A DNA stretch of 64,000 nucleotides from Bacteroidales bacterium (lineage in GTDB: Bacteria; Bacteroidota; Bacteroidia; Bacteroidales; Porphyromonadaceae). Within the stretch, counting starts at the first letter, position 1. Every line of letters starts with the position of its first letter. The stretch is taken from NCBI GenBank assembly GCA_004555765.1, contig SFHG01000001.1, positions 20,005 through 84,004 of the forward strand, read 5' to 3'. The notes beneath the pieces were generated by a model. It was not told where the DNA came from. It searched no databases and worked only from the letters and a program-made list of their open reading frames with translations. Shown here one piece after another: positions 9,486 through 63,734 of this stretch. The translations under genes and the position numbers were made by a program.

Positions 9486-9523
9486 GAGACACGTACCAAG
9501 GCTATCTTCCCGGTACGTGTCTC
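9486..9523. repeat. Member of the intergenic hairpin repeat family
   Basis: gagacacgtacc, 14 nt, then ggtacgtgtctc. Further half-sites (ggtacagacc, cacgtaccg) follow to about 9570. Confidence 0.7.
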
Positions 9524-9729
9524 GTTTCTTTGGGGTACAGACCGAAACGATTGCCTTGCACGTACCGAAAACGGTTCGGATTTAGAATGCCGCATTTCTG
9601 AGGATCCGATTTACGTTGTCAGTCTGACTGATTTTTTATACCTTTGCCGCGGTTAACCCGTCACACGCGTGACAAAAGCATGCGTCTCAGAAATATCCGG
9701 GTAATGCAACAACACACAAAAACGTCAAA

Positions 9730-10299
9730 ATGAAAACAACATTACTTACTGTCAAGCGAGTTATTCTCGCTACTTTTGTCGTGTTCGGCATCGGACACGG
9801 TCTTTATGCCCAAGACACGCTGAAATCCCAATGGATCGGAGAATTGGGGACGAGAAACGGGGTAACCTATGAGCAACGCCTTAATGATCATTTCCTGATG
9901 AGATACAGCGGAGGGCTTATGGCCAATATGAGGTTGCAACCTTACGGTTACGGGAAGTTTACCGTGGACTTTGAGTACACGGGATTCGCTCCCTATCTCT
10001 CCGTGGGGACGAGATGGTATCCGTTTCCCCAAAAGAATAACAGCGGATTCTTCCTCGGATTGGAAGCGACGTATGCACACAGCGCCTGGAAATTTCTGGT
10101 CGACAAGTCCGACCTGAAATACGACTTGGGATACGAGTTTTATCTGATGCCGAGCGTAGGCTACGTGTACGCGGTTACGGATCGCCTCAATCTCAAGGTC
10201 GCCCTTATGCCTGCAGTCGAACTCTCTTTCAAGAGAGATGGAGAACCCTATTGGGGTCCCAATCTGCGTGGAGACATCGGGGTCACCTACACCTTCTGA
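9730..10299 (+). CDS. Small outer-membrane beta-barrel protein (hypothetical)
   Basis: Signal peptide ..VFGIGHGLYAQ, alternating aromatic/aliphatic strands, and a C-terminal ..GVTYTF ending in Phe. Confidence 0.6.
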   Translation: MKTTLLTVKRVILATFVVFGIGHGLYAQDTLKSQWIGELGTRNGVTYEQRLNDHFLMRYSGGLMANMRLQPYGYGKFTVDFEYTGFAPYLSVGTRWYPFPQKNNSGFFLGLEATYAHSAWKFLVDKSDLKYDLGYEFYLMPSVGYVYAVTDRLNLKVALMPAVELSFKRDGEPYWGPNLRGDIGVTYTF

Positions 10300-10438
10300 T
10301 CGTCAGATGCCGCACAAATAGACAAAGACGATATTCACGAAAAAGAGCGTGTACCAAACGGGGAATTGCAATTACCCCGTCCGGTACACGCTGCTTTTTA
10401 ATAGGTCAAGAATCTCCCTACCGTAGGGACTTCCCCGA

Positions 10439-11479
10439 TTAGAAGAGGAGGGTGCCGGGCGGCGTGGATGAAGAGGGGGCAAGGCAGGAGCCGATGATGG
10501 CGGCATAAGGCGCACAGGACGCCGTCAGCTCTCCGAGCAAATCGAGGGCTTTGTCCGCATCCACAGCGACGAGCAACCCGCCCGAAGTTTGGGCATCGGC
10601 AACGAGATACCGAAGTGGCAGCACGCTGCGGGACGATGGGCGGAAGAAGTCTCCGACGTAACGGATGTTGCGGAAGGCGGCCCCGGGGATGCACCCGGCA
10701 TCCAAGAGGTCGGTGGCTCCGGGGAGAGACGGCACGAGGGACGGCTCAAGGTCGAGGACGACACCGGAGGCTTTCGCGAGTTCGTATCCGTGCCCGATGA
10801 GACCGAATCCGGTGACATCGGTTGCCCCCGTGACCCCGTATTTGGAAAGCACCGCCCCACAGGTATTCAATGCCTGCATTTGCCTCAGAGCATCGTCGTA
10901 GTCCTCCTCGCGCGCCATCTTGAGACGATGTCCGGCGATGAGGACACCGACCCCGAGTTTTTTAGTCAAGATAAGCACTTGTCCGGGCTTGGCTCCGGCG
11001 TTGGTGATAAGCTTGTCGGGGTGGACGGTGCCGAGGACTGCGAGACCATACTGTGGCGTATTATCGTCTATCGTATGTCCGCCCATCGTGAAGGCTCCGG
11101 CTTCGTCGATCGCACTCTGCCCGCCGACGAGGATCTCTTTCAGACCCTCAAGGGGCAGACGGGTGGAGGGGTAGTGCATCAAGTTGAGCACAAGGAGCGG
11201 TTTGCCACCCATAGCGTAAATGTCGCTCAAGGCATTGGCGGCGGCTATGCGTCCGAAGGTATAGGGATCGGAGACCATCGGCGGGAAAAAGTCCGTCGTA
11301 AAAATGAGGGCGACTTCATCGCTAAGCCGGTAGACCCCCGCGTCGTCGTGACCGGAGATACCGACCATCACCTCAGGCGACGAAGGAATGGAGATGCCGG
11401 CAAGCAGCTTGTCCAGAACCGCCGGGTCTACTTTGGCGGAGCAGCCACCGTAGGCCGCTTCTTTCAGCAAATCGATCAT
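10439..11479 (-). CDS. selD: Selenide, water dikinase (selenophosphate synthetase), Cys form
   Basis: N-terminal ..AAYGGCSAKV.. (catalytic Cys plus Lys). PurM-like body ..GHDDAGVY.. and ..ATDVTGFGLIGH... Length is 346 aa. Confidence 0.88.
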   Translation of the reverse strand: MIDLLKEAAYGGCSAKVDPAVLDKLLAGISIPSSPEVMVGISGHDDAGVYRLSDEVALIFTTDFFPPMVSDPYTFGRIAAANALSDIYAMGGKPLLVLNLMHYPSTRLPLEGLKEILVGGQSAIDEAGAFTMGGHTIDDNTPQYGLAVLGTVHPDKLITNAGAKPGQVLILTKKLGVGVLIAGHRLKMAREEDYDDALRQMQALNTCGAVLSKYGVTGATDVTGFGLIGHGYELAKASGVVLDLEPSLVPSLPGATDLLDAGCIPGAAFRNIRYVGDFFRPSSRSVLPLRYLVADAQTSGGLLVAVDADKALDLLGELTASCAPYAAIIGSCLAPSSSTPPGTLLF

Positions 11480-11494
11480 GGCTCCGTCACTCGC

Positions 11495-12103
11495 TTAGGG
11501 GTAGACCACCTTGGAGGCAGACGCAAGGGTTTCGGCGATAGCAAGCATATTGGAGATACGACCGACAGCCAAACGCTCTTTGAGGTGAAGGAAGTCGGTG
11601 CAGAGACCGCAGACAAGGATGTCGACGCCTAAGCTTTCGAGCTTCCGGAGTGCCTCAAGGACGTGGCTTTCCCTGGTGGCAAGGAGGGCACCGGTATTGT
11701 AACAAACAATCTTTTGGGGCAAAGGCTCCACCTCAGCCAGTGCCGTAAGATAGCTTTTGATGAGGGTATGACCGAGCTCGTCGTTGCCGTACCCCATAGC
11801 GTCGTGCGTGAGTACGACGACCGTATTTCCGGGATCTGCAGATGCCGGAGCCGGCGCTCCGGCCGGGGTTACGTTTTCGACCGTCGTCGTGACGGTAACC
11901 GTCAGACGCGTGGTTTCGCCTTCATCCGACTGCGAGACTCCGAACTGCTGGTCTCGGATGAAGTCCATCAAGTTGGAGCAGGAGATGGCGTTGTCGGTGA
12001 GGATCTCGAAGACCGTCTCCTCAGGGTGTTCTTTGAGGGCTTGGCGGAAGAGGATCAAAGGCAGGGGGCAGAGCTTGCCCCGCGTATCTACTAATGTGGA
12101 CAT
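11495..12103 (-). CDS. yedF: Selenium metabolism protein YedF (TusA/SirA-like N-domain + DsrE-like C-domain)
   Basis: N-terminal TRGKLCPLPLILFRQAL (CPxP motif of the TusA fold), a low-complexity linker and a DsrE-like C-terminal half. Lies 15 nt upstream of selD. Confidence 0.7.
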   Translation of the reverse strand: MSTLVDTRGKLCPLPLILFRQALKEHPEETVFEILTDNAISCSNLMDFIRDQQFGVSQSDEGETTRLTVTVTTTVENVTPAGAPAPASADPGNTVVVLTHDAMGYGNDELGHTLIKSYLTALAEVEPLPQKIVCYNTGALLATRESHVLEALRKLESLGVDILVCGLCTDFLHLKERLAVGRISNMLAIAETLASASKVVYP

Positions 12104-61758: not shown

Positions 61759-61811
61759 AATTTTCTCTCGGGATGGCTACACCCCATCTTCCGAATTAGG
61801 ACTATAAAAGG

Positions 61812-61819
61812 TATCTTTG
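61812..61819 (+). promoter_or_regulatory. Candidate -7 box (TATCTTTG) for lepA
   Basis: TATCTTTG lies 43 nt upstream of the ATG at 61862. Confidence 0.45.
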
Positions 61820-61861
61820 TAAGGATATTCCCCATAGATTTTACGCAACAAAAGAGTTCAG

Positions 61862-63649
61862 ATGAAGCATATACGCAACTTTTGCATCATAGCCCATATT
61901 GACCACGGCAAGAGTACCCTTGCCGACCGTCTCCTCGAGTACACCAAGACCGTCTCCGAGCGGGAAGCTCAGGACCAAGTGCTTGACGATATGGACTTGG
62001 AGCGGGAGCGTGGCATCACGATTAAGAGCCATGCCATCCAGATGGACTACACACTCGATGGTGAAGAGTATGTGCTTAATCTCATCGATACCCCGGGACA
62101 CGTGGACTTCTCCTACGAAGTGTCCCGCTCCATCGCCGCGTGCGAGGGTGCACTCCTCATCGTGGACGCTTCCCAGGGCGTACAGGCGCAGACCATATCC
62201 AACCTCTATATGGCTCTTGAGCACGACCTCGTCATCATCCCCGTTTTGAACAAAATAGACCTTGAGAGCGCACGCCCTGAGGAGGTGGGGGACGAAGTGG
62301 TGAACCTCCTGGGCGTCGACCCGTCCGAAATCATCCGAGCCTCGGGCAAAACGGGCGAAGGGGTCGAAGAGATCCTCCGCGCCGTAGTGGAGCGCATCCC
62401 CGCTCCGAAGGGTGACCCCGACGCGCCGTTACAGGCGCTCATCTTCGACTCGGTCTTTAACTCTTTCCGGGGCATCATCGCTTATTTCAAAGTGGTGAAT
62501 GGTTCGATTCACAAAGGGGAGAGGGTGAAGTTCATCAACACCGGCAAGGAGTACGACGCAGACGAAGTCGGGACCCTCAAGCTCTCCATGATGCCGAAAG
62601 ACGAAATCAAGACCGGAGACGTGGGCTACATCATCTCGGGCATCAAGACGAGCAAAGAAGTGAAGGTGGGCGACACCATCACGACACTCGACAACCCCGC
62701 AGACAAGGCCATCGCAGGCTTCGAGGAGGTCAAGCCGATGGTCTTTGCAGGGGTCTATCCGATCACGCCGGACGAGTTCGAGAACCTCCGCACTTCGCTC
62801 GAAAAGCTCCAGCTCAACGATGCCTCCCTCACCTTTCAGCCCGAGAGCTCTGCCGCTCTCGGATTCGGTTTCCGCTGCGGTTTCCTCGGACTTCTGCACA
62901 TGGAGATCATACAGGAGAGGCTCGACCGGGAGTATGATATGAGTGTCATTACCACGGTCCCGAACGTCTCCTACCTCGTCCACACCAAGAAAGGCGAAGA
63001 GATCGAGGTGCACAACCCATCCGGGCTCCCCGATCCCACGCTCATCGACTTCATCAAAGAGCCTTTTATACGCGCCTCCATCATCACGACGACCGACTAC
63101 ATTGGGCCCATTATGACCCTTTGCCTCGGCAAACGGGGTGAGCTCATCAAGCAGGACTACCTCTTCGGCAACCGCATTGAGCTCACGTACGATCTGCCCC
63201 TCGGAGAAATCGTCATCGACTTCTACGACCGTCTCAAGAGCGTCTCCCGCGGCTACGCCTCATTCGACTACCAGGTTCACGACTACCGCCCCTCCCGCCT
63301 CGTGAAGGTGGACATCCTGCTCAATGGCGAGCAGGTGGATGCCCTCTCTTTCCTCACCCACGCGGACAACGCCGTACCGATGGGTCGGCGCATCTGCGAG
63401 AAACTCAAGGAACTGATCCCCCGCCAGCAATTCGAAATCGCCATCCAGGCGGCCATAGGTGCCAAAGTCATCGCCAGAGAGACGATCAAAGCCGTGCGCA
63501 AAGACGTGACTGCCAAGTGCTACGGTGGCGACGTATCCCGTAAGCGCAAACTTCTCGAGAAGCAGAAGGAAGGCAAAAAGCGTATGAAGCAGATCGGCAA
63601 CGTCGAAGTGCCCCAAAAAGCCTTCCTTGCCGTCCTCAAGCTCGACTAA
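61862..63649 (+). CDS. lepA: Translation elongation factor 4
   Basis: [25 protein letters not shown].. (G1), ..DTPGHVDF.. and ..NKIDL... Length is 595 aa. Confidence 0.96.
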
Positions 63650-63670
63650 AATCTCATACGGACCGGGGAG

Positions 63671-63734
63671 AAGATTTGGTACAGGCCGGCGCAAAAATTT
63701 CGGTCTGTACTCGGGCATACCCCCGGTACGTACC
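63671..63734. repeat. Hairpin-family half-sites between lepA and dnaB
   Basis: aagatttggtacaggcc, aaaaatttcggtctgtac, ccccggtacgtacc. Confidence 0.55.

Follow-up and report, generated by a model that had tools for sequence, protein, structure and literature searches.

The window, a 64,000-nucleotide stretch of DNA from a Porphyromonas-like gut bacterium (Bacteroidales), carries arrays of a lineage-restricted, non-coding interspersed repeat family, the members of which are built on a rigid 23-bp lattice. This lattice of conserved cores, not the hairpin, is the defining property of the family. Comparative analysis showed that its expansion took place in the ancestor shared by two sister species (this one and G020), which belong to a Porphyromonas-like genus of 25 species. 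Inheritance from then on has been vertical, with array positions fixed, and change has come mainly through whole units (46 or 70 bp) being gained or lost, and also through rare tandem duplication and loop flips. Judging from the sequence evidence, we tentatively regard it as a BIME-like repeat, now vertically inherited, that may be read as double-stranded DNA by a putative protein.

The motif GAGAYACRKACC, with one mismatch at most, was found 31 times in the window, as compared with 1.57 ± 1.17 times in shuffles, and its A4T4 flank ACCAAAATTTT, with the same tolerance, 13 times against 0.88 expected. No 12-mers are more frequent in the 2.09-Mb genome than those of this family, which confirms that the family is real. 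Genome-wide, a core model detected about 1,000 cores at about 590 loci, and the core PWM gave 1,161 cores as opposed to 105 in a reversed-sequence control. Most exact units (710 of 789) were intergenic. The sequence-only reading had listed 17 loci, and units of the family were present at all of them, 15 being detected with the 10-nt core PWM that served for locus detection and the other two (22.5-22.6 kb and 49.7-49.86 kb) through inspection of their degenerate or variant units. It had also placed the repeat in almost every intergenic space. This wording is too strong: of the gaps that are 100 bp or longer, the family occupies 17 of 23 in the window and 385 of 726 (53%) in the whole genome; gene coordinates and gap counts are taken from crude in-house gene calls. 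These data identify a genuine amplified non-coding family rather than a collection of gene-specific terminators.

The basic unit is a 10-12-bp pseudo-palindromic core (GGTACGTACC, GGTACAGACC/GGTCTGTACC, GGTMYGTRTCTC), flanked by semi-conserved TCTC/GAGA shoulders and separated from the next core by a spacer with an almost random centre. Core-to-core distances amounted to 22-24 bp (421 pairs), 45-47 bp (274), 68-70 bp (174) and 92-93 bp (7). Because these distances are quantised and almost never extend beyond 68-70 bp, the canonical element has four slots with a 23-bp period and a length of about 92 bp, and not the 46 bp or so previously proposed for a complete copy. Four slots were spanned by 162 arrays and more than four by 5, and one lattice step beyond either end of the element the PWM score was at background level. 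Units are arranged either in inverted orientation, which gives hairpins, or directly, without a hairpin, and both arrangements share the 23-bp lattice. Spacing depends on orientation, with 23 bp for direct pairs, 24 bp for '<>' and 22 bp for '><'; consecutive intervals were (23,23), (22,24) or (24,22); (22,22) and (24,24) did not occur. The outer cores were inverted in 108 cases versus 25, and the commonest slot order, < > < >, results in two 38-bp palindromes. Within the genome, 408 of 421 spacers were unique, with a pairwise identity of 0.41 (0.34 after shuffling), whereas the roughly 1,000 cores showed a pairwise identity of 0.80. The arrays found in the window, none of them assigned to a strand, are the following.

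9441..9566: lattice array with strong cores at 9488, 9512 and 9534 and weak in-phase cores (TGCACGTACC) at 9441 and 9557 (PWM/phase, inverted repeat).
17024..17102: four-slot array (GGTACGTGTC, GGTACGTGTC, GACACAGACC, GGTACGGGTC), DNA fold only z = -2.4, in a gap separating two minus-strand genes.
20367..20446: array across four slots, fold z = -7.8, including a perfect 36-bp palindrome (20412-20447); orthologous in G020, with substitutions confined to the spacer.
22541..22619: four direct degenerate units (GTACAGACC, GCACAGACC, GCACGTACC, ATACAGTCC) with 9 + 14 nt per unit; they lie between prfB and efp, in a gap 155 nt long that in congener G013 has no units and measures 48 nt.
24958..25013: three-slot array, a short core plus a hairpin with loop GCTTCGGT, fold z = -6.0, within copy 1 of a 90-bp direct repeat.
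26737..26815: counterpart of the preceding array in the second copy of that 90-bp repeat, its loop being the reverse complement (ACCGAAGC); G020 has a single copy of this repeat and lacks window positions 25022-26733.
29746..29823: array combining a strong core (29746) with a variant hairpin (GACCCGTATC / GATACAGGTC) that occupies 29792-29823 (PWM, inverted repeat).
33280..33357: hairpin doublet over four slots, the first hairpin degenerate (PWM, inverted repeat).
36466..36544: four-slot array in which every core points the same way, ruling out a hairpin; fold z = -1.4, equalled by 16 of 200 shuffles.
39213..39292: array across four slots with strong outer cores (GGTACAGACC ... GGTACGTACC) and degenerate inner slots (PWM).
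40989..41022: two-slot array (GGTACAGACC, GGTCTGTATC).
43063..43141: array across four slots with strong outer cores (PWM).
47670..47747: four-slot element with two hairpins, the 6-nt loops of which are mutually reverse-complementary, fold z = -7.0; 46 bp of it (47677-47722, two units) are missing in G020.
49722..49860: variant copies (core GACCCGTATCTC), one hairpin and then about three direct copies of a 46-bp repeat (inverted repeat).
55153..55207: array across three slots, within a same-strand gene cluster (PWM).
61666..61769: four-slot span with a 43-nt-arm palindrome, fold -43.5 kcal/mol, z = -13.4; its inner hairpin (61670-61719) precedes a T6 run and is the only copy that clearly resembles a terminator.
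63655..63734: four-slot array of two strong and two weak in-phase cores (PWM).

Several features picked out in the sequence-only reading were confirmed: the long palindrome at 20.4 kb, two doublets (33.3 and 47.7 kb), the triplet of 46-bp direct repeats at 49.75 kb and, at 61670-61719, a terminator-like copy. The usual pairing of units into hairpins is frequent too, but not universal, as illustrated by the direct array at 36466-36544.

We considered the possibility that the family acts mainly at the RNA level, its copies forming 3' UTR hairpins that serve as terminators or as barriers to 3'-exonucleases, like some E. coli REPs. Convergent gaps had the highest unit density (3.4 per kb) and divergent ones the lowest (1.6 per kb), the median position of units was 55 nt past the upstream stop codon, inverted copies folded strongly (z from -6 to -13), and A and T runs flank copy 61670-61719, all of which would fit. 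Yet the orientation of units relative to transcription was unbiased (122 to 119), the strand bias raised earlier as a point to check being therefore absent, and the family was found in 41% of divergent gaps. Furthermore, direct arrays form no hairpin, most copies have no U-tract, terminator-like sites were not more frequent than in shuffles, and a stem-loop requires neither exact spacing nor a given core sequence. This explanation is thus very unlikely. Since there is no orientation bias, direct arrays exist and divergent gaps are occupied, the terminator or RNA-stability role that had been suggested is possible for a minority of copies and is not general; in the copies that show hairpin or terminator behaviour, we infer this to be a by-product.

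The family is present in 2 of the 25 species of the genus. Copies matching the core pattern numbered 374 here and 460 in G020, which is about 92% identical, and at most 15 in the other 23 congeners and 16 other families. In a comparison covering 1.17 of about 2.0 Mb of G020, 159 of 170 arrays (94%) were orthologous in that species, and six conspecific assemblies were identical across 4.5 kb. The mobility that the sequence-only reading had envisaged is therefore not seen at present. Differences between the sister species comprised whole-unit indels and, at two loci, an entire array present in one and missing from the other. Over 1.06 Mb of aligned DNA, identity was 95.8-96.0% for cores, 85.4% for spacers, 88.5% for other intergenic DNA and 83.7% for third codon positions, part of the excess for cores arising from the selection of consensus cores in this genome. 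When neutral divergence was halved, about 180 core mismatches were observed versus about 260-330 expected, a modest excess of conservation. Among cores, identical 10-mers made up 60%, versus 47-63% expected. Gene conversion among copies could also mimic selection on cores. Spacing was altered in 9 of 226 adjacent core pairs (4.0%), as compared with an indel in 21.4% of control 23-bp intergenic windows; small indels were thus about 5-fold rarer in arrays than in other intergenic DNA, or 2-3-fold rarer once the control was halved to account for ascertainment.

These observations also bear on three further explanations. The family might be a selfish single-strand hairpin element of the REP/REPIN type, spread in the ancestor by an HUH (Y1) transposase acting in trans, and by now mostly immobile and no more than tolerated downstream of genes. 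Its high copy number, single lineage and intergenic location would agree with this, as would the two cases of whole-array presence or absence, the similarity of paired palindrome arms (0.75-0.8 mismatches versus 1.73 for random unit pairs), the presence of one Y1_Tnp gene in the genome and the fact that no target-site duplication was found at arrays, which is expected for HUH transposition. Yet the RAYT-type transposase that was looked for, though it exists, has on its flanks in all three species examined (this one, G020 and G013) a GC-rich hairpin repeat of another kind, which bears GTAG here and in G013, and no link of our family to the transposase was found in these three species; nor was any link to HU genes. 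In addition, the Y1 gene of G020 is frameshifted although its repeats are as numerous as here, neither a GTAG nor a CGTC tag occurs in the units, direct arrays without a hairpin follow the same lattice, and preserved spacing with random spacers is not predicted for a decaying selfish element. We therefore hold this origin to be unlikely. We are equally doubtful of a neutral relic, that is, an old 92-bp palindromic minisatellite-like element in slow decay, whose core and spacing conservation would reflect ascertainment, gene conversion and whole-unit slippage. The modest excess of core conservation after correction is in its favour, slippage or recombination between units is evident from whole-unit indels and from recent tandem duplications whose spacers are identical, and direct neighbours are slightly more alike (1.3 mismatches) than random pairs. 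It does not account, however, for near-random spacers next to highly similar cores, for the rarity of small indels even against the halved control, for the sharp four-slot cap, or for the recurrence of the four-slot design with unrelated cores in congeners. Finally, the family could be a DNA uptake sequence for natural transformation, like the Neisseria DUS or the Haemophilus USS: its motif is short, very abundant and lineage-specific, with frequent inverted pairs downstream of genes, and the sequence-only reading places a putative comM-like gene in the window. This is hardly credible, as cores are not enriched in coding DNA (171 PWM matches inside genes for a background of about 105), and the strict 23-bp lattice and four-slot cap would be left unexplained.

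Since core sequence and exact spacing are constrained, and spacer, strand and hairpin potential are not, reading as double-stranded DNA is the explanation that we tentatively prefer. A putative sequence-specific, probably dimeric, protein would dock cooperatively on up to four phased sites, and the elements would represent a BIME-like structural or 'domesticated selfish' element. As the family is confined to two species, any dedicated reader should be lineage-specific too, or shifted in specificity. Two candidates for this protein were rejected, the RAYT of this genome because its gene adjoins another repeat family, and DUF6078 because no such gene was found in this genome or G020, even at E ≤ 10.

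Rfam scans gave no match for the family and literature searches no named counterpart, in keeping with the earlier remark that it belongs to no recognised family; it is apparently undescribed so far. Like our family, the BOX elements of Streptococcus pneumoniae and the Correia elements and DUS of Neisseria are modular, species-specific intergenic repeats, of which inverted copies can act as terminators or affect neighbouring genes. They differ from it in that BOX modules, 45-60 bp long, consist of defined A, B and C parts, Correia elements possess terminal inverted repeats and a TA duplication, and DUS are lattice-free single 10-12-mers that are common in genes. Our family occurs in all kinds of intergenic space and is REP/BIME-like in the broad sense. 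The BIMEs/REPs of E. coli and other Enterobacteria and the REPINs of Pseudomonas, with their RAYTs, consist of hundreds of short extragenic palindromic units, and BIMEs are bound by the host proteins IHF, gyrase and Pol I. Common features are clusters of alternating orientation, fixed linker lengths, lineage-specific sequence, enrichment at 3' gene ends, vertical inheritance and stable positions. Unlike these elements, our family has shorter units (10-12-bp core), an exact 23-bp lattice, a four-slot cap, essentially random spacers and direct arrangements as legitimate as inverted ones, and it lacks both the tags and the RAYT association of the GTAG/CGTC-tagged REP classes and their HUH enzymes (PMC3733652; PMC6006769).

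BrickBuilt, a 23-nt minisatellite within a MITE of Porphyromonas gingivalis (Klein et al. 2015, PMC4596501), shares with our family the bacterial group, the 23-nt unit length, the intergenic location and whole-unit gain or loss. Its unit AGAYCATARTATCCTCTCRTRTG, however, is unrelated in sequence, and it has a leader, a tail and GAGACCTTTGCA terminal inverted repeats common to ISPg elements, with 10-20 copies of up to 18 repeats each (PMC4596501); our family has about 590 loci of at most four slots, no leader or tail, and variable spacers within the unit. A separate MITE with BrickBuilt-type GAGACCTTTGCA terminal inverted repeats also exists in this genome. Lastly, four-unit arrays of 22-bp palindromes lie directly 3' of DUF6078 (PF19555) genes in congeners G013 and G015. 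Their cores are different, and our dispersed loci are not tied to one gene, but both kinds of array have four slots, a 22-23-bp period and palindromic cores that differ between lineages.

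Short inverted repeats assembled from the motif singled out by the sequence-only reading were found in the window, where GAGAYACRKACC gave 31 matches with at most one mismatch against 1.57 in shuffled sequences, and its A4T4 flank 13 against 0.88 expected. Units of one family were present at each of the 17 loci named by that reading, and the genome-wide excess on which its proposal depended was confirmed, the commonest 12-mers of the whole genome coming from this family. Its consensus cores are GGTACGTACC, GGTACAGACC and GGTMYGTRTCTC, and we refer to it as the 23-bp family. Long cores (GGTMYGKRTCTC) had 374 exact matches in the genome and short cores (GGT[ACGT/CTGT/ACAG/CCGT/ACGG]ACC) 415, and a 10-nt position weight matrix (PWM) recovered 1,161 core positions as compared with 105 in a reversed-sequence control. 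The assembly (2.09 Mb in 120 contigs, 53.7% G+C, rated 99% complete), of which the window is C102:20005-84004, is a draft in which repeats may be under-assembled. A core was present in 385 of the 726 gaps of at least 100 bp. The family thus fills roughly one in two of the longer intergenic gaps in what is a small genome, with consequences for annotation (ORFs falsely extended at the 5' end), for breaks in the assembly and for comparative alignment.

The distances between cores were quantised, with 421 pairs at 22-24 bp, 274 at 45-47 bp, 174 at 68-70 bp and almost nothing between; larger distances comprised 7 pairs at 92-93 bp and 3 at 115-116 bp. Adjacent cores, with > and < denoting core orientation, were spaced as follows.

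Spacing of adjacent cores by relative orientation
Direct (>> or <<): 23 bp in 125 of 158 pairs
<>: 24 bp in 105 of 118 pairs
><: 22 bp in 61 of 76 pairs

Consecutive intervals were mostly (23,23), (22,24) or (24,22), with some (22,23)/(23,24) mixtures, and (22,22) or (24,24) never occurred. This puts the lattice period at 23.0 bp. The 588 arrays of the genome were tallied by the number of lattice points, or slots, that they span.

Arrays by number of slots spanned
One slot: 260
Two slots: 72
Three slots: 89
Four slots: 162
More than four slots: 5

Beyond the four-slot arrays the PWM score fell to background at the next lattice point, where it reached at least 5 bits in 0-2% of sites. The five longer arrays are recent tandem duplications, since their adjacent units are identical. 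The inner slots of four-slot arrays tend to alternate, and the resulting < > < > order creates a pair of 38-bp palindromes with 14-nt spacers similar to GRGAAGATCTYCYC. Spacers as a whole were nearly random: 408 of 421 were unique, and their mean pairwise identity was 0.41, as compared with 0.34 for shuffled spacers and 0.80 for cores. As single strands, inverted arrays folded strongly (z from -6 to -13.4). No strong fold was obtained for an all-direct four-slot array at 36455-36555 (z = -1.4), which occupies the same lattice, indicating that the hairpin is a common but not a defining property. Of the hairpins in the window, one at 10340-10398 (AAAAAGAGCGTGTACC...GGTACACGCTGCTTTT), downstream of a gene ending at 10299, has GTACC/GGTAC in common with the cores but sits off the lattice and looks like an ordinary bidirectional terminator.

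The long-core pattern was present in 374 copies in this genome and 460 in a sister species (G020), and in at most 15 copies in the 23 remaining congeners and in 16 further families of the order. A phage origin was unsupported, viral contigs giving no match; JGI metagenome contigs were searched with two patterns, of which one gave no match and the other a single hairpin attributable to chance. Rfam 15 yielded no match to the family at the gathering score, and at E ≤ 1 nothing real, the overlaps being with sub-threshold miRNA-precursor hairpin models. The only Rfam and ARAGORN matches in the window were a cobalamin riboswitch at 3026-3263 (minus strand, 70.7 bits) and a tRNA-Leu(CAA) at 50015-50097 (minus strand). 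Presence/absence polymorphism within the species was not seen among six conspecific assemblies (99.5-99.8% identical), in which the repeats were unchanged over 4.5 kb. The only difference in these 4.5 kb was a 7-bp microsatellite (CAGCAGT-type) unrelated to the repeats, which at 20334 has one unit fewer than in five conspecific assemblies and G020.

Conservation was assessed against G020, the DNA of which is about 92% identical to that of this genome (98% for EF-P), by sampling 1.17 Mb, of which 1.06 Mb aligned.

Identity to the sister species
Cores: 95.8-96.0%
Spacers: 85.4%
Other intergenic DNA: 88.5%
Third codon positions: 83.7%

Full alignment was obtained for 159 of 170 arrays, and spacing had changed in 9 of 226 adjacent core pairs (4.0%), as compared with an indel in 21.4% of control 23-bp intergenic windows. 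As cores and spacings were picked in this genome, only changes on the G020 branch count, and we halved the neutral expectation (our own arithmetic). With this correction there were about 180 core mismatches against 260-330 or so expected, and 9 spacing changes against about 24. The depletion of changes is real, moderate for core sequence and clearer for spacing.

Where arrays did differ, whole units were concerned. At 47677-47722 a 46-bp, two-unit difference sets a hairpin doublet here against a single hairpin in G020; a 70-bp gain of three units adjoins an existing unit at C72:20347, and G020 carries a 46-bp direct duplication. At two loci (C71:28094-28213 and C32:5340-5442) a whole array was present in one species only. 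The gap between prfB and efp is 155 nt here and 48 nt in G013, a repeat-free congener at this locus, the extra DNA consisting of four direct 23-bp units. A 90-bp repeat (24932-25021 and 26734-26823) flanks the segment 25022-26733, its two copies differing by a reverse-complemented 8-nt hairpin loop. G020, with one copy of the repeat, has no counterpart of this low-GC islet of 1.7 kb, which holds a MACPF-like gene; either this species therefore gained the islet or G020 lost it through the repeat. Through these 90-bp repeats and the whole-unit indels, copies of the family mark sites of rearrangement.

With our crude codon-usage gene calls, on which all gene-context figures rest, 710 of 789 exact units were intergenic, and the 171 PWM matches within genes were roughly at the false-positive background (105). 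Unit density per kb was 3.4 in convergent, 2.6 in tandem and 1.6 in divergent gaps, of which 48%, 24% and 41%, respectively, were occupied. The median unit lay 55 nt past the upstream stop codon and 133 nt ahead of the next start codon. The orientation bias relative to flanking transcription that the sequence-only reading had proposed to look for was absent (122 to 119). Canonical terminators were not enriched in a scan of 44-64 kb, the total equalling the shuffle expectation, and the sole family hairpin to pass was that at 49726-49763; the copy at 61670-61719 stands apart as clearly terminator-like. We therefore rejected Rho-independent terminators as a class, which would have a GC-rich hairpin running straight into a U-tract in line with the upstream gene: the scan was at shuffle level and units showed no orientation bias.

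We considered the possibility that the family depends on a known type of partner. A RAYT-type transposase, suggested earlier as an associate, does exist in the form of a Y1_Tnp gene (C75:40545-41075, minus strand, with HUH and Tyr motifs), single in the genome, but it is flanked by a different repeat. On both sides it is bordered by tandem units of 75/107/146 bp carrying GCCCCGTAGGGGC (C75:39900-41640), a motif with 33 genome copies, 20 of them on this contig. These hairpin arrays form a second, GTAG-type, REPtron-like family with most copies at one locus. The Y1 gene of G020 is frameshifted, and Y1 genes also occur in six repeat-free congeners. We rejected the REP/RAYT link: GC-rich hairpin repeats of other kinds (bearing GTAG here and in G013) surround the Y1 genes here, in G020 and in G013, and the GTAG/CGTC tag is absent from the consensus of the 23-bp family. 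A DUF6078 (PF19555) reader was likewise excluded, the gene being absent here and in G020 even at E ≤ 10 and present in 10 of 25 congeners. None of the three HU-family genes has units nearby, which eliminated an HU-like gene with trailing arrays. A restriction-modification link failed as well, GTAC and GGTACC being unavoided in coding DNA (observed/expected 0.92 and 1.01). Genome-wide, coding DNA does strongly avoid CTAG, CATG and GGCC (0.04, 0.28 and 0.40), which suggests restriction-modification systems of those specificities.

Other identities were also considered. The GCGATCGC of cyanobacterial HIP1 is incidental in one spacer, with 25 copies genome-wide. A MITE would fit the outer cores of four-slot arrays, inverted in 108 and not in 25, but these terminal cores do not differ in motif from the internal ones, and no target-site duplication was found: direct repeats of 3-8 bp at offsets of 0-8 from the outer cores were as frequent as in shuffled flank pairings (n = 160). 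A MITE also calls for an autonomous IS with matching ends; the transposase search covered Y1_Tnp. BrickBuilt was rejected because its unit is unrelated in sequence to the cores and neither leader nor tail is present. A separate MITE of about 125 bp lies on contig C72 at ~12.78-12.90 kb, with terminal inverted repeats GAGACCTTTGCA ... TGCAAAGGGTCTC, the ends of P. gingivalis ISPg1 and of BrickBuilt, and a possible remnant at 49590-49705 of the window. It is missing from the C72 site in G020, which has multiple copies elsewhere (76-86% identity). This resident MITE, together with a ClpB 67-68% identical to those of Porphyromonas, Parabacteroides and Paludibacter MAGs, places the host in the Bacteroidales as a Porphyromonas-like organism. 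Outside the window, about 42 copies of a direct repeat with CCCCGCGTGGGAGCG / CGCGGGGAGCGAC probably make up a CRISPR array.

Arrays of similar design were found in congeners. In G013 there is a dispersed element about 130 bp long, with its cores (GACGGATAGTAGC and TTTCCAGTAGGAAA) set on a ~22-bp lattice; that of G015 measures 4 x 22 bp, and its core, TAAACACGTTAA, has ACACGT in common with GAGACACGTACC. In both, core distances end at about 65 bp, i.e., four slots. No such family was found in 100 kb of G018, and only a weak one in G022. Four-slot lattices of 22-23-bp period thus recur in the genus, each lineage having cores of its own. Furthermore, a DUF6078 gene is followed within ~50-100 bp by four 22-bp palindromic units in both species (locus L182, 677-1258, in G013; L183, 1501-2035, in G015). 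The cores there, GGGACTATAGTCTC-like in G013 and TCCCAT-N6-TGGGA in G015, differ from those of the dispersed four-slot families of the same two genomes.

The repeats are a real family of one lineage, now vertically inherited, in which four slots lie on a 23-bp lattice. Constraint acts on core sequence and spacing, and not on spacer sequence, strand or hairpin potential. Our tentative preference, held at a little under an even chance, is that the elements serve as double-stranded binding sites for a sequence-specific and probably dimeric protein, which would dock cooperatively on the phased cores. A neutral relic kept uniform by gene conversion is an unlikely explanation: had the 92-bp element spread whole and then decayed neutrally, cores would have been lost and indels would have accumulated as the spacers became random. 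A principal role as terminator or RNA stabiliser, to which the strong folds and the copy at 61670-61719 might point, is distinctly improbable: a pure RNA or hairpin function leaves the direct arrays, the lack of strand bias and the fixed spacing unexplained. A once-mobile, REP-like single-strand element, now inert, is as unlikely as the relic; the Y1 gene has a repeat of its own. Uptake sequences are over-represented across a genome, in coding DNA too, and are preferentially taken up; cores of this family in coding DNA were at about background, and we consider a DNA uptake sequence very improbable.

Cooperative protein reading might extend further. It is conceivable, though we think it unlikely, that the 22-23-bp four-slot lattice is a general, undescribed Bacteroidales protein-DNA system, each lineage having its own core 'dialect' and a fast-evolving small protein to read it, DUF6078 in some and another reader here. 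If so, this genome would be an extreme case, its docking array having spread to half of all gaps between genes and being maintained by selection on core sequence and exact spacing, and repeat and reader could form a partnership of a new kind, chromosome-structuring or selfish. A reader protein, if it exists, would offer a tractable entry to an unstudied protein-repeat system of gut and oral Bacteroidales; if there is none, the family is still a clean example of the persistence of palindromic minisatellite-like repeats.

No description of the 23-bp family or of DUF6078 was found in the literature searched. A REP is an imperfect palindrome with a GTAG or CGTC tetranucleotide tag at one end (PMC3733652). 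Like REPs and REPINs, the 23-bp family consists of high-copy extragenic palindromic units, often in inverted pairs; unlike REPIN-RAYT systems, it has neither tag nor adjoining RAYT gene. BrickBuilt of P. gingivalis is built of a 23-nt unit, AGAYCATARTATCCTCTCRTRTG, with leader and tail segments bearing GAGACCTTTGCA terminal inverted repeats (PMC4596501); it resembles the present family in host group and unit length and differs in sequence and architecture. The DUF6078-linked arrays of G013 and G015 have the gene beside the array, whereas the genome of the 23-bp family lacks it. Standard models of REP-RAYT systems or MITEs do not account for the rigid lattice, four-slot cap, conserved cores and free spacers. 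Among known elements the BIME comes closest, and the 23-bp family is a bacterial interspersed repeat of known sort with an unexplained molecular 'ruler'.
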